Positions 8,767 to 61,694 of a stretch of 64,000 bases of DNA are shown piece after piece; within the stretch, counting starts at the first letter, position 1; every line of letters starts with the position of its first letter. The notes below the pieces were generated by a model, which did no database searches, was not told where the DNA came from, and saw only the letters and a list, made by a program, of their open reading frames with translations. A program made the translations under genes and the position numbers. Source of the stretch: Patescibacteria group bacterium (GTDB lineage: Bacteria > Patescibacteriota > Patescibacteriia > Veblenbacterales > UBA10138); contig JAHITT010000006.1 in the NCBI GenBank assembly GCA_018817715.1, forward strand, positions 75,147-139,146, given 5' to 3'.

Positions 8767-9020
8767 AATGAACATCCCAAAAACAAAACCTTAAAAACTA
8801 TCTTATTTAATTTTTAACTAATATCTATATCTATTTACGGAAAAAAACACGGTGACGGCATTGTCGGCGGCATATACGGCCTAGGGCTAATTGGTGCAGC
8901 AGTTTATTATATCCAGCAGGCTGACAGCTTTGTTGTAGGCCTTTTAGGCGTACTTAAGGCTATTATTTGGCCAGCCATGCTAATTTACAAATTAATGCAC
9001 TTTTTAGGCATGTAATTTTA

Positions 9021-9059
9021 TAGGCTTATTCGTACGAATAAGCCTATGATATCCACAGG
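9021..9059 (-). repeat. palindromic repeat element copy A (inverted, diverged)
   Basis: TAGGCTTATTCGTACGAATAAGCCTA perfect 26-bp palindrome plus TGATATCCACAGG arm; related to copies at 55747 and 61350. Confidence 0.8.
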
Positions 9060-55671: not shown

Positions 55672-55746
55672 TAATTATTATGACCAAGTTGTTTAAAAAA
55701 CAACTTGGTTTTTTAATATTAAAAACAACAAAATAACCTAAATTAA

Positions 55747-55786
55747 CCTGTGGATAACATAGGCTAATTCGTACGAATTAGCCTAT
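55747..55786 (+). repeat. palindromic repeat element copy B
   Basis: CCTGTGGATAACAT + TAGGCTAATTCGTACGAATTAGCCTA; identical 40 bp to copy C. Confidence 0.85.
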
Positions 55787-55793
55787 AAAGAAA

Positions 55794-56615
55794 TTATTTA
55801 AAGGGATGAGACTTTTTAAACTCTTCTAGGACTCCAGATTTTTTGGCTATGGACAACAATTTTTTATGCAAATGTTTGTTACTTAATAAAGCGCCTTTAA
55901 TAAACCCGTTATACTTTTGTTCCTTCCCCCATAAATCTGTTACCTTACCACCAGCTTCCTCCACCACTATTTTAGCCGCCGCAATGTCATGGGCTAATTT
56001 ACCATTAAATATACAACCATCAAACCCGCCAGTAGCTATTAAAGAAGCCGCTTCAGCTACCGAATAAACCTCGGGCGTGCGAGCGTTTTGTTTATGAAGT
56101 AAAACAGAAGCGGACGAACTTTTCCAACCGGTTTTTATTAAAGCGCCAGCCAAAATTTTTTTATTGCTTACTGATAACTTAAAATTCTTTTCCACCAAAT
56201 AAGCGCCCTTGCCTTTTTCGGCCAGTACTGTGCGCCTGGCTAAAGGATTACACAGCACTCCAGCCACTGGCCGACCATCTATAACAATAGCGGCCGAAAA
56301 AACAAACAACGGCGCGCCAATAATAAACATATGCGTGCCATCTATGGGGTCCACCACAAATAATTTACGACCAATTGTTTTAGAACTTATTTCTTCACCC
56401 AAGACATCAAAATCCGGGTAAGCCTTGGCCACCTCGCGCAGAACCATTTGGTTAACAGCAATGTCGGCCTTGGTTACGGCATCCAATCCCCAATCAGCCT
56501 TTTTATTTTTAATAGTATAACTTACCCCACAAGGATTGTAATACTTAAGCATTAGCCGACTAGCTTTGCTGGATAAGTTTAATAGGAATTTTGTTTGCTT
56601 GCTAAATTTTTTCAT
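55794..56615 (-). CDS. inositol monophosphatase family protein (IMPase/SuhB/CysQ-like)
   Basis: VVDPIDGT and GGFDGCI-like motifs of IMPase fold. Confidence 0.75.
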   Translation of the reverse strand: MKKFSKQTKFLLNLSSKASRLMLKYYNPCGVSYTIKNKKADWGLDAVTKADIAVNQMVLREVAKAYPDFDVLGEEISSKTIGRKLFVVDPIDGTHMFIIGAPLFVFSAAIVIDGRPVAGVLCNPLARRTVLAEKGKGAYLVEKNFKLSVSNKKILAGALIKTGWKSSSASVLLHKQNARTPEVYSVAEAASLIATGGFDGCIFNGKLAHDIAAAKIVVEEAGGKVTDLWGKEQKYNGFIKGALLSNKHLHKKLLSIAKKSGVLEEFKKSHPFK

Positions 56616-56687
56616 AAAGACAAATTAAGATTGCCATTCAAAACTATCTCCCAACCAACCGCTTTGGATAACAAGTTTGTAGTAAAA

Positions 56688-59429
56688 TTATTCTTTATCA
56701 AACAATGTTGGCTTCTGTCCGTTTGTAAATTCTTCGGTTGCCAATTCCTTGTGGCGTAATTCGTCATATCCCTCAAAATCGCTCACGCTCGCAATTTTAA
56801 CTGCCTTGAACCCTCTTTTTTCCATTGCCTTGTCCACGAGGAAAAAAGTTTGAACGCCGCCCTCTTTTTCTAAAAGTTTTAGGGCTTTCTTGCGGTCATC
56901 AATTTGTTTCGCTTCGGCAAGATGCTTGCCTTTAACATCAACGACTATCCACTTGCCTTCGATAAACGCAAGAAAGTCCGGATAAAATGGTGCTGGCTTT
57001 ACTTCAACGGGATACTCAAAAGGATCATTTCTAACCCAAAAACTTTTCTTTTTCTTGTCCAATGAACAAAGATGCTCCAAAGCGTCAGCGACCCATTTTT
57101 CGGGCGGCGAATCAAACTTTACAAACGGACGAGCAGAAAATTTATATCCTTCAACAATAATACCTTTCTGCTGTAAGTGCGAGGACATGGGTTGATGAGA
57201 AGGAATCAAGTTGAGAGTAAGTCCGTCTCGTTTTCTAACAGTAATTTTGCCATCCACAAAAATATCTTTTACATTTTTCTTTCGGAATATAAATTGTCTC
57301 TTGAACATCAATTCAAATGCGCCTTGTCCGTAAAATTCAATAATACTCTTTTTTAGAGCTTTCAAGGCGCGTTTATAGTCCACCGCGTAGGCGGTATCAA
57401 CCTGTATTCCGGCACCAATAATGTTTTCTATCAGCTTCTTTGCAGTATCAAATGAGTTATTTCCGATAAATGAGCCAGTTTGTTCTATAAAATCTAACGC
57501 CCAGCGCGCAATTTCGTTTTTAGGCAAAGCTATTGTTCTGCGGGTAGTCGCTGGCTTGTCAGTCTGCATGGCGATTTCATCAGTTGTAATTTCCGCATAG
57601 TCAATCATTGCCAAAACTTCTGGCTTTAGAACTTTGTCACCCTTGGAAAGCCCGCACACCTCATCAACAAACGCTTTAACGCTTAACGATTGATCTTTTA
57701 GCGCGTCTTCAAAACTTTTACCGGTTGCAGTTGGTTTGATCTGCAAAATTGGAATTTCGTAGTCATCAATAATTTTTCTGTTTACTTTATTCTCGCGGTC
57801 TTCTTCCTCGGTTGGAATTTCAACATTTGCCGGCGACAATGCTAATTTTTGCCGAATTTCTTCTACGATTTGATCAAAGCGGCGGCCCCTCTCGCAAATA
57901 ACATGTAAAATTTCGCTCTGCTCTTTTAGTTCATCGCCCAAAATATCAAACTCCCGTTTTTCTTTGTAAAGTCGGAGACCACGCCCGATAAGTTGGGCCG
58001 CCGCGAGACCAACTTTCTCAACAGTATCGCCCAAAACAACGATTGTATAAAAATTGTCGTAATCAACGCCCTCGGTGAATATACGGACTTGGTTTACAAC
58101 TTCGGCATTATTGTCGTCGAGCGATTGATAATCTGTCCAGACCTCTTCCTCGCTTTTATTTTCGCTATGAATGGTGAAAACAGATTTTGCCACTCGCGAC
58201 AATTTTTTTACTAATTCTGATTTGTTTTTTGGTATATTCGTACGAACAATTTTAGCAATATCGGTTCCTTCACGATTTACTTGTTCCAACACATCATCAA
58301 GCTCGCCCGCAACCGAATCAGGCCAATTTTTGAGATAATCATCAATCGCGTCCGCGTGTTTTATAGTTCTTGCTTTGGTAAGCAACATCGCTTTTTTCAC
58401 TGGCGCGTTAGCGGCGGCAAGCGACTCGGTTTTTAGCAAATGAATCAACATGCCCCAAACCAATTTCTGCTTATCACTATCGGTCACTTCGTCTGAAATT
58501 TTCTCGTCGCTTGTTCCGCAACCAACCGCAAAAATCCTCTTGCCATATCCCTCTCCAATATATCTTTGCATTGGATACTTGTATAAGTTGTCTTGTCCAA
58601 AACTCTCGCTACCACCTTTTTCAAGTGATGTTGCGGTAAATTCCAGCACAGCGCTCGGCAAGAGCTCAAAAATTGCTTCTGCGGTTTTCTTTTGCTGGTA
58701 GTGGTGTGCTTCATCAGAAATAATGACTGGCCGCTTTTCGCGTAAAAATTCCACAAACGATATGGTGTGTTGCCCGCTTTTATCACGCCACAATGATTCT
58801 TCAAGCGGCCGGCGAACATATGGTGTCCCTTTCATTGTATCTTCACCGTCTTTTTTGTTCGATGAAGCCGCTTTATCGTAAAACTTCTGCATGTTGAAAA
58901 CATAGAAAGAAACGTCGCGATCATCTTCGTAATTGCAGGTTTTATCACGATAAGAATTTCCCGTAACCAAGTTGTAGGTTAAATTCCAACCGTCGCCAAA
59001 AATGCTTTTTACTGCGCGCGGCGTAAAGTTTTCTATCGTCTTATCAAACAAAATTGTGTTCGGAGTGAGAATAAGAAAATCTCTAAAACCTCGGTGGTAT
59101 AAGTCCAAAATCGCCGCGCCCATCAAAAGGGTTTTGCCGGAACCGGTCGCCATTTCAAAACCGACCTTATTCCACCCAACAATCTTATCGTCATCGTCTT
59201 TTCCTTGTTGAAGTGTTTTCTGCTTTAAGCTCCGGCTGTCAAACTTGTCTTTCCAAAAAAGTTGAAATGCGCTCAATGCTTCTATTTGATACGGGCGCAA
59301 GGCAAATTTAAGCAAATGCTGTATCTTTTCGTAATTCTCAATCGTTTTTGGCGACGGCGAACCGACGGCAATTTTGTATTGCTGGTCTTGGCTCACTAAA
59401 TCGTAAAATGTTTGCGGTTTTGTTCTCAT
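56688..59429 (-). CDS. res: Type III restriction enzyme Res subunit
   Basis: SF2 helicase motifs (ATGSGKT, DEAHH) and C-terminal PD...DVK nuclease motif; ATGA overlap with mod stop. Confidence 0.85.
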   Translation of the reverse strand: MRTKPQTFYDLVSQDQQYKIAVGSPSPKTIENYEKIQHLLKFALRPYQIEALSAFQLFWKDKFDSRSLKQKTLQQGKDDDDKIVGWNKVGFEMATGSGKTLLMGAAILDLYHRGFRDFLILTPNTILFDKTIENFTPRAVKSIFGDGWNLTYNLVTGNSYRDKTCNYEDDRDVSFYVFNMQKFYDKAASSNKKDGEDTMKGTPYVRRPLEESLWRDKSGQHTISFVEFLREKRPVIISDEAHHYQQKKTAEAIFELLPSAVLEFTATSLEKGGSESFGQDNLYKYPMQRYIGEGYGKRIFAVGCGTSDEKISDEVTDSDKQKLVWGMLIHLLKTESLAAANAPVKKAMLLTKARTIKHADAIDDYLKNWPDSVAGELDDVLEQVNREGTDIAKIVRTNIPKNKSELVKKLSRVAKSVFTIHSENKSEEEVWTDYQSLDDNNAEVVNQVRIFTEGVDYDNFYTIVVLGDTVEKVGLAAAQLIGRGLRLYKEKREFDILGDELKEQSEILHVICERGRRFDQIVEEIRQKLALSPANVEIPTEEEDRENKVNRKIIDDYEIPILQIKPTATGKSFEDALKDQSLSVKAFVDEVCGLSKGDKVLKPEVLAMIDYAEITTDEIAMQTDKPATTRRTIALPKNEIARWALDFIEQTGSFIGNNSFDTAKKLIENIIGAGIQVDTAYAVDYKRALKALKKSIIEFYGQGAFELMFKRQFIFRKKNVKDIFVDGKITVRKRDGLTLNLIPSHQPMSSHLQQKGIIVEGYKFSARPFVKFDSPPEKWVADALEHLCSLDKKKKSFWVRNDPFEYPVEVKPAPFYPDFLAFIEGKWIVVDVKGKHLAEAKQIDDRKKALKLLEKEGGVQTFFLVDKAMEKRGFKAVKIASVSDFEGYDELRHKELATEEFTNGQKPTLFDKE

Positions 59430-61149
59430 AGTAATTTATATTCTCTCAAAATTGCTGCCGGTATCTTTTTTACCATAACGCGATCGTCCAACGAATCTGG
59501 CGGCACGGAAACGGCGACATTGGTAAAAATTGTTAGGTGTTTGAATTTTTCTCTTTCCAATTCGGCAATAATTTTTTCATATAGATCAGCCGTTAGTGTT
59601 TTTACTTCTCTTGAAGCAAAAGAAATGGCGAAATGATAGCGTGCAGATTGGTGCTTGCCGAGATACATACCTTCCTTCTCCACCCACTTCGTCTCTATCG
59701 GTCTGTATTGGAAATGTAAAAATACTGCTTCGGCCATTTCTGCTGCTTTCAGCGACCAATTCATATCTTGTTCATGTATCACGCTCTCGCCTAGTTGGTA
59801 GTATTTGAACCCTCCGCCACCTTTCCAGTTCACATCCTTGCTTATCCCTGTTTGATCTTTCCCAGAGATGATTTTTTGTAGGCGTGGCATGATGAGTTCG
59901 TCAGCGTGACGTCCCATTTCTACCATAATCCAACGACGTTCCATTTTGTGCGCCACGGCTCCCGTGGTCCCAGAACCAGCAAAAGAGTCAAAAACCAAAT
60001 CATTTTTTCAGTCGAGATTGAGATAATACGCTGTATAAGTTTTTCAGGTTTTTTTGATTTGGGAAAGTCAACCCCTCCTTCGCCCGCAATTCCTTCCCAA
60101 GAAATATCGTCCCAAATATCTGTTATCGCCTCTACTGGCAATAGATTTCCATCCACTTCCTGTAATCTTTCTCTATAAAATAGGACTCTCTCGCCCCCAA
60201 TGAATAAATAGTCCATATCATCATTTGGATGTCTAACAATTTTATTCTTGAGTTTGCGCGACTTTTCAAGAGTCTTAATCCTCTTGAGACGAGCTCCACC
60301 AGTAACCGACGCCGTACGAAAGACTCTCTCGGCATTTTTAATTGCAAAAACTCCTCTTTCAGCATTAAATTCATCCTCTCTTAATTCTTTTTTTGCGTCC
60401 CTTGCATTTGAAAATCCAAGCTCTAGCGCCACAACTTCATCAATATTCTTCCATGACCATTTATCTTCTGGTTTTTTTATATCGTCAAAAACCCAACGAT
60501 ATGCTTGATCATATCCCTTTTCAATAAATGTCTTTTTGAATTTCAGTTGAGCAGAGTCTTTTGCGAAAATCAAAAGGTTATTTGCTGATTTGAAAAGCTG
60601 ATTTGAAGTGTGCTTAAAACCAAAAGGACTATTTGCTTTTATAGTCACAGTATTTAGATAATTCTGTCTGCCAAATGTCTCATCAAGCAAAACACGGCAA
60701 TACGCGACTTCTTTATCATCCAAATGTACGAAAAGAATCCCGTCCTTTCTCAAGAGTTTGCGTAGCAGAAACAACCTGTCGCGCATCATTGTTAGCCATT
60801 CAGAATGTTCAAGATTGTCGTCATAGTGTTTGAAGGCGTTCCCTGTATTAAATGGAGGGTCAATATAAATACATTTCACTTTTTCCTTATCCGGTCGGCC
60901 CTTAAACATCTCAACCAAACTTCGCAAAACTAACAAGTTATCGCCCTTGATAAGCATGTTATCGCCTGTCTTGTCGCCAAAGTCTTTGGCAAAGCGTAAA
61001 ATGCGCGGTTCGGCAACGCGAATATCATTTTTCGGCACCCAAACCGGCCGGACACCCTTGCCCTCCTTTTCGTCAATTTCGTAGTAAAGCGAAAGGTCTT
61101 TGTTTATCCAATCCAGCCGTAACGAGCCCTTGTAACTTCTTTTTTGCAT
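59426..61149 (-). pseudogene. mod: Type III N6-adenine DNA methyltransferase Mod, split by -1 frameshift at a T6/A6 tract (60003-60008)
   Basis: upstream part carries DPPFN (motif IV), downstream part FDSFAGSGTTG (motif I); one extra A would fuse the frames into ~574 aa. Confidence 0.75.
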
Positions 61150-61151
61150 AA

Positions 61152-61290
61152 TTACTTTATTAAATCATCTAAGGTAACACTAAGAGCCTTAGCGATTTTC
61201 CGCCAGAGGAGGACAGATTTTAACTATCTCAATAGTCGGATTAGGGGTGGCGCCGGCTTTGATTTTGGCCATAGTTAGCATATTCATATA
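61152..61290 (-). pseudogene. degraded HTH (XRE/C-protein-like) gene fragment upstream of mod
   Basis: translations ...ATPNPTIEIVKI... and ...RKIAKALSVTLDDLIK* in two adjacent frames; matches only the C-terminal helix pattern of XRE HTH domains. Confidence 0.3.
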
Positions 61291-61349
61291 GCTTTACTAT
61301 ACCAAAAATTACCAAACAAGATAACTAAGCTAAAATCAGCCAAAACCAG

Positions 61350-61389
61350 CCTGTGGATAACATAGGCTAATTCGTACGAATTAGCCTAT
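61350..61389 (+). repeat. palindromic repeat element copy C
   Basis: CCTGTGGATAACATAGGCTAATTCGTACGAATTAGCCTAT identical to copy B. Confidence 0.85.
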
Positions 61390-61623
61390 GAGGAAAATTT
61401 AGGCCAAAATTCAAAAAATTATAAAATCCTATCAGATTGCTTCCTCCTTCGCTATCCTCCTTTATTAAAATTTCGGCAGGACTAGAAGCTACGGCGGACA
61501 AGTCGTCGCCGTGCTCCTCGCAATGACAAAGGAAATATCATCGCGCCCTTCGAATCCATTAACTTATCCCAAACAAAAAAACAGACTAATGTCTGTCATC
61601 TTATAAACCATTTATGTACAAAG

Positions 61624-61694
61624 CTGGGAGACATGGATTCGAACCATGATTACCAGGGCCAGAACCTGGCGTCCTACCATTAGACGATCTCCCA
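61624..61694 (-). tRNA. tRNA-Gln (anticodon CUG)
   Basis: hand-folded: acceptor UGGGAGA/UCUCCCA (U1-A72), D stem GUCU/GGAC, anticodon stem CCAGG/CCUGG with loop UUCUGGC, T arm CAUGG-UUCGAAU-CCAUG, discriminator G, CCA not encoded. Confidence 0.8.

Follow-up and report, generated by a model that had tools for sequence, protein, structure and literature searches.

[quoted passage not shown] Both are encoded by a mod-res operon: Mod is a beta-class N6-adenine methylase in which motif IV is followed by the recognition domain and then by motif I, and Res joins an SF2 ATPase to a C-terminal PD-(D/E)xK motif. The division of labour is well described: Mod recognises the site, directs and positions Res, and stabilises it (PMC3874151). 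In systems of this type, Mod hemimethylates the DNA, and ATP-dependent cleavage requires a pair of asymmetric sites in inverse orientation.

Some Type III mod genes are phase-variable. In modH, modJ and modL of H. pylori, and in modU of C. upsaliensis, the length of a homopolymer inside the open reading frame sets the reading frame, and the ends of the gene are conserved around a swappable recognition domain (PMC5909438). Their tracts consist of about 9 or more G's; they are shared between alleles, and their length varies from strain to strain. A survey of phase-variable Type III mod genes counts mononucleotide tracts of at least 9, dinucleotide repeats of at least 5 units, and longer units repeated at least 3 times; its short exceptions are G7-G8 tracts, which can vary in phase at 1e-3 to 1e-2 in some bacteria, and surveys overlook OFF alleles and short tracts (PMC5909438). 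The mod gene of MmyCI, in the small AT-rich genome of Mycoplasma mycoides, is truncated by a simple repeat of another kind, a long dinucleotide array, AG[12] (PMC3498834).

Frameshifts in poly(A) tracts are also found in genes of Buchnera and Blochmannia, whose genomes are again small and AT-rich, and slippage of the polymerase during transcription partly rescues these genes (PMC5574713, PMC3017870). The tracts involved are about 9-11 A's long. Insertions during transcription cluster in A/T runs and become exponentially more frequent as the runs lengthen (PMC5574713); that study itself found no restored frames.

We consider here a mod gene in a 64-kb stretch of DNA from a Patescibacteria group bacterium, a tiny uncultured organism whose genome, like those of M. 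mycoides, Buchnera and Blochmannia, is small and AT-rich; the whole of this stretch is called the window in what follows. The gene is most likely a Type III mod of the ordinary kind that was frameshifted not long ago, and its interest as such is low. The locus is probably a genuine Type III mod-res operon that was acquired horizontally by a Patescibacteria genome, and in which an ordinary A7 run has recently lost one A. Table 1 gives the coordinates of its features.

On the plus strand the site of the break reads as a run of six T's between the flanks ATCA and CAGT. The minus-strand frame of 409 amino acids reads ...RIISISTEK-MIWFLTLLLVLGPREPWRTKWNVVGLW* in this region, and the alternative frame, (TGA)-KNDLVFDSFAGSGTTG..., is open as far as the stop at 59426. 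A first-pass annotation of the window had placed the interruption of mod at this T6/A6 tract, had proposed that a single added A would give a Mod of about 574 amino acids, and had read methyltransferase motif I in the +1 frame: the position is accurate to the base, and the other two claims hold as well. With one A inserted into GAAAAAAT, the protein has 574 amino acids, its match to the Pfam family PF01555 (N6_N4_Mtase, 3.7e-41) covers residues 91-418 and thus spans the junction, and the missing A sits just before motif I.

The lesion can be pinned to the A run, because a TGA in the target frame stands next to it on the 5' side and confines the indel to the run, and because the relatives read T-E-K-(N/E/G)-D-L-V-F-D at the junction with no change in length. 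Runs of A or T of at least 6 nucleotides make up only about 3% of the gene, so that a break inside a homopolymer exceeds chance expectation. The intact state of the site would be A7, in the form GAA AAA AAT, or E-K-N; judging by the closest intact relatives, the ancestor most simply read ACT GAA AAA AAT GAT, and a single A would since have been lost.

The two parts of the gene divide the functional elements of the enzyme between them. Residues 1-382 of the 5' ORF are authentic Mod, with the N-terminal region, motif IV (IYIDPPFNTGN, residues 93-103 of the repaired protein) and the target-recognition domain; the final 27 codons are out-of-frame read-through without homology, followed by the premature stop. 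The 3' part has no internal stop, carries motif I (DLVFDSFAGSGTTG, residues 384-397 of the repaired protein) and a conserved C-terminal region, and its stop overlaps the start of res as ATGA at 59426-59429. The frameshift leaves the catalytic motif IV and the target-recognition domain on one side of the break; the AdoMet-binding motif I lies on the other, together with the C-terminal region, and the A6 allele does not encode a full-length Mod.

Table 1. Features of the mod-res locus, with the evidence or remark that goes with each. Coordinates are those of the window, except for the intact HTH_3 genes, which are given in the coordinates of the related loci.
Feature	Position	Strand	Evidence or remark
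Third copy of the repeat element	9020-9059	-	
Second direct copy of the repeat element	55730..55793	+	5603 bp from the copy at 61333-61396
res, 913 aa, intact	56688..59429	-	PF04851 ResIII 2.5e-22; REase_III 7.9e-15; purifying selection; motifs
mod 3' part, +1 frame, ~192 codons	59426..60004	-	Sequence; ORFs; Pfam; alignment with EcoP15I Mod; dN
mod 5' ORF, 409 aa	59920..61149	-	Sequence; ORFs; PF01555; 4zcf_A 4.2e-21; MTase_III 4.3e-115
Frameshift site: coding-strand A6, plus-strand T6	60003..60008	-	Sequence; relatives
HTH-XRE (controller-like) gene remnant	61155..61287	-	Directly upstream of mod; comparison with intact relatives
Repeat element copy, mod-proximal side	61333..61396	+	TGTGGATAA and 30-nt perfect palindrome
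Intact HTH_3 genes of relatives (examples)	L024 3241-3450; L019 3797-3994; L009 955-1185		

The assignment to Type III, also made in the first pass, is borne out. The repaired Mod scores 4.3e-115 with the PADLOC model MTase_III, and among solved structures it comes closest to the Mod subunit of EcoP15I (4zcf_A, 4.2e-21); in the alignment with that subunit, the junction falls a few residues ahead of the FxGxG AdoMet motif. The order of its elements is that of beta-class N6-adenine methyltransferases: motif IV DPPY/F, then the target-recognition domain, then motif I FxGxG. The product of res follows the Type III pattern, an SF2 helicase-type ATPase with a C-terminal PD-(D/E)xK. It matches REase_III models of PADLOC (7.9e-15 and 1.2e-12), and has a Walker A motif GSGKT at 96, DEAH at 239, QxxGRGxR (motif VI) at 479 and a C-terminal PD(817)...DVK nuclease motif, all of which are kept in the relatives. 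Unlike its EcoP15I and EcoP1I counterparts, this Res is too diverged to match any solved structure at the sequence level, and its classification is based on Pfam, PADLOC and motifs. The gene mod lies directly upstream of res in a single operon, and this order is identical in all relatives examined. Two further differences from EcoP15I and EcoP1I are that the host here is a Patescibacteria MAG and that mod is frameshifted.

Neither res nor the 3' part of mod shows decay, which argues that the lesion is recent. For the 3' part of mod, dN relative to L003, one of the related loci (numbered with the prefix L), is 0.089, and the intact relatives differ among themselves by 0.10-0.20; dS is saturated, and the test is weak. 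The ratio dN/dS of the two halves of mod against L003-L007 was set aside, dS being above 1.7 or undefined: it shows only that there is no excess of dN downstream. As a clock, res is better: compared with the 97%-identical res of L125, whose neighbour is an intact mod, it has a dN/dS of 0.033 and a dS of 0.42. Four outgroups served to polarise the changes, of which 11 nonsynonymous and 74 synonymous ones fall on the window lineage, against 13 and 67 on the intact lineage. Constraint has thus not been relaxed, and either the frameshift is young or the gene is periodically restored. An origin of the break at a recombination junction was also considered and rejected. A BLASTN block of 90% identity to L124 starts at 60001, adjoining the tract, and a 60-nt sliding identity profile has no breakpoint there; the edge of the block marks none, because its high identity derives from res.

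About 126 related loci, gathered from metagenomes and genomes, give a view of the tract in other alleles. At the site, the intact Mods nearest to this one, with 81-87% identity, have ACA GAA AAA GAA GAT, ACT GAG AAA AAT GAT, ACG GAA AAA GGA GAT and ACA AAA AAA GGA GAT; in L003-L006, what stands there is an A5 interrupted by G. Over the family, the length of the run goes from none of at least 3 up to 8, and the codons of the site vary in the closest relatives and in L125. More distant relatives (L007, L033, L044 and L123) have A7 or A8, all in frame. A frameshift at the site is found in 0 of the roughly 126 loci, and a change of frame anywhere in mod in 3, of which 2 are N gaps. Frameshifting as a habit of the family was thus rejected: L081 and L110 have N gaps, the mod of L124 differs in its start call and is intact, and the change in L074 lies in a variable region. 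The tract is not conserved, and the run stems from the coding of Glu-Lys-Asn in an AT-rich genome.

One rival reading is that the break is a sequencing or assembly artefact, and that the true genome carries A7 and encodes an unbroken Mod of 574 aa. Errors in the length of homopolymers are a classic kind, and the A6 allele is known from three assemblies, independent by assembler and not by library, all of them possibly from one sample and one read set: a 531-kb ENA MEGAHIT contig, a second large contig, and the Logan assembly of SRR6514274. Against an artefact, the three come from different pipelines and are the same base for base; the Logan contig is 100% identical to window positions 55757-61379 and passes through the site unbroken. 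To judge by its name, k141_..., the contig was assembled from short reads by MEGAHIT, and in such assemblies consensus errors at homopolymers of 6-7 nt are rare. A scan in which all 702 runs of at least 5 in the 64-kb window were edited by plus or minus 1 nt is also informative: mod is the sole place where a 1-nt edit reunites a split protein domain, which makes an assembly riddled with homopolymer errors unlikely, and not one of the 98 other A/T runs of at least 7 in the window (74 A/T7, 23 A/T8 and 1 A/T9) breaks a gene. The scan flagged 6 other places (7 runs), which are junctions of complete separate genes, including def/fmt, a PBP and its neighbour, and a cyclophilin and its neighbour; a general homopolymer error or decay in the window was dropped on this ground. 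NCBI contains the Res sequence, as MBU1039305.1 of 'Patescibacteria group bacterium', but no 409-aa Mod fragment, an absence consistent with a pseudogene call there too, by a third pipeline. We consider the artefact very unlikely; of the alternatives left by the first-pass annotation, the evidence favours recent decay, and assembly error fits poorly with the agreement of the three assemblies and with a window in which no other gene is broken at a homopolymer. It is still less credible, and in our view extremely improbable, that the A6 allele is rescued by recoding, in which a useful full-length Mod would arise by transcriptional slippage adding one A or by a -1 slip of tRNA-Lys on A-AAA-A, or in which the fragments would form an active split enzyme. 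Slippage most often takes just the form needed here, an extra A in an A run or a -1 slip on A AAA A, and translation from a TTG codon at 59998 could yield a fragment beginning MVFDSFAGSG. However, the frameshift is kept in none of the roughly 126 relatives, and so is no programmed feature of the family; six A's are at the low end for slippage, compared with the longer tracts of Buchnera and Blochmannia; no Shine-Dalgarno-like sequence is seen by eye upstream of the TTG; and the gene caller starts the 3' ORF past motif I, at a length of 172 aa. The A AAA A permits a tRNA-Lys slip but, read in the zero frame, does not form an X XXY YYZ heptamer. No stimulatory RNA structure is found on the 3' side of the site, where the folding of 93 nt does not surpass that of shuffled sequences (z = +0.97).

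The headline proposal of the first pass was that the tract is a phase-variable switch: an A6/A7 contingency locus would flip the methylase by slipped-strand mispairing, the genome having been assembled in the OFF phase, and would flip restriction too, and possibly a methylation-dependent regulon. Several observations are those expected of such a phasevarion. The break lies exactly within a homopolymer, and one more base restores the gene; the remainder of the operon is intact; res and the 3' part of mod are undecayed, as a reversible switch would also leave them; the ends of mod are conserved around a swapped recognition domain, as in the alleles of H. pylori and C. upsaliensis; and surveys tend to overlook OFF alleles and short tracts (PMC5909438). 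The evidence from the tract itself does not support a switch. At A6 now, or A7 if intact, it is below the 9 bases asked of mononucleotide tracts, and the documented short tracts are poly-G, not poly-A. No other simple sequence repeat is found in mod or in the 300 nt upstream, and di- to hexanucleotide repeats are absent from mod, in contrast with the array of MmyCI. The same gene holds three more A7 runs, all intact (60049-60055, 60388-60394 and 60472-60478), and four more A6 runs. The comparison of the tract in relatives, a check put forward in the first pass, came out against the proposal: it is unconserved in the nearest ones, which differ in their site codons, and none is frameshifted there, the alleles with A7 or A8 included. 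No ON allele is on record: no intact allele of more than 87% identity exists among 5.8 billion protein clusters, the exact Res sequence used as a query for such an allele returns just the same three contigs, and all three assemblies, possibly from one sample, show A6 only, the Logan contig running through the site unbroken. While the tracts of H. pylori and C. upsaliensis are conserved and polymorphic, here we have an unconserved A6/A7, one of several equal runs, seen in one state. None of the testable features that define a contingency locus is found here. We thus regard the phasevarion as very unlikely, and give a little less credit still to the idea that A6/A7 turns a Type III methylase ON and OFF, reversibly and at a low rate, in a Patescibacteria (CPR) episymbiont; what stands of the first-pass account is its other suggestion, recent decay. 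If the host lacks mismatch repair, A runs of 6-7 nt could flip often enough to matter; the locus would gain in importance only if A6/A7 heterogeneity existed, since phase-variable methylases would then extend to short poly-A tracts and to Patescibacteria; and a true switch would be the first phasevarion-like system in CPR, toggling phage defence and genome-wide methylation.

The reading that we prefer, and consider likely, is a real and recent deletion of 1 nt in an ordinary A7 run (GAA AAA AAT to GAA AAA AT) that disables the R-M system as a whole. One A would have been lost by replication slippage, from which indels in homopolymers usually arise, at a tract without special status. The N-terminal product, having no motif I, should be unable to methylate, and the frameshift is expected to silence methylation and restriction alike without self-killing (PMC3874151). 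The whole system would be off because Res needs Mod for site recognition and stability, a dependence that the first pass had stated correctly (PMC3874151), and because res is translationally coupled to the mod stop through the ATGA; a lesion with this outcome would be tolerated for that very reason. The premature stop lies about 490 nt ahead of the res start, and should also end the translational coupling that the overlap implies. On this account mod would be a young pseudogene. A trace of Mod may return if A6 reverts to A7, or through a rare slip of the polymerase or the ribosome: this would be noise, and not an evolved switch. In practice, the gene should be annotated as a pseudogene with a frameshift, and this genome listed as having no active R-M system at the locus, a call that bears on inventories of defence systems in CPR bacteria. 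The locus would also be a clean example of a Type III system safely shut off via mod, Res being harmless without Mod.

The cassette as a whole appears to have travelled. The G+C content of the res-mod region, at 56001-60000, is 41-43%, against about 35% for most of the window, a contrast consistent with recent acquisition; and res has 90% DNA identity and 97% protein identity to a copy in unrelated contigs, one of which is binned as Bacteroidota. The contrast and the near-identical copies together argue that the cassette is horizontally mobile. The cluster of Res proteins at 90% identity takes in contigs of 1-3.5 Mb. Mod and Res compare differently with L125 (window 59426-61149 against L125 175-1920 for mod, and 56688-59429 against L125 1917-4658 for res): Res is 97% identical, and the identity of Mod is 92-98% across the first 100 residues, drops to 12-40% in the central recognition domain and is 78-90% at the C-terminus. 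Such a mosaic indicates a swapping of recognition domains between alleles on a conserved backbone, with wide horizontal spread. A tRNA-Gln(CTG) gene lies at 61623-61694 on the minus strand, between dnaX and the cassette, and related mod-res cassettes also adjoin tRNA genes, a tRNA-Ser in both L124 (40-129) and L006 (3736-3828): these neighbours hint at tRNA-adjacent insertion sites.

In the controller-like gene remnant upstream of mod, the 5' half is gone, and an insert of 22 nt, lying between AAAATC repeats, splits the rest. In many relatives an intact HTH_3 gene of 65-76 aa occupies this place and ends 2-20 nt ahead of mod (examples in Table 1). These HTH_3 proteins resemble the controller (C) proteins of Type II systems, with a weak match to C.BclI (1.3e-3). 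As a proof of the decay of the cassette, the remnant is weakened by the closest intact relatives, L003-L007, which have no HTH gene.

Finally, the segment that holds an Inositol_P gene, res and mod is bounded by two direct copies of an intergenic repeat, CCTGTGGATAACATAGGCTAATTCGTACGAATTAGCCTAT. The element is 40-64 nt long, and consists of a perfect DnaA-box 9-mer (TTATCCACA on the opposite strand) adjoining a 30-nt perfect palindrome. The window as a whole contains 3 DnaA-box-like 9-mers, compared with 0.65 expected. It contains no replication origin or terminus between positions 1 and 64000, since cumulative GC skew drops monotonically throughout. The hairpins of the element fold far better than shuffles (z from -3.8 to -5.3), and the third copy has compensatory A/T swaps that preserve the stem. 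The independent Logan contig of SRR6514274, L002, ends inside both flanking copies. Candidates for the role of the element are a terminator, a protein-binding site or the end of a mobile element.
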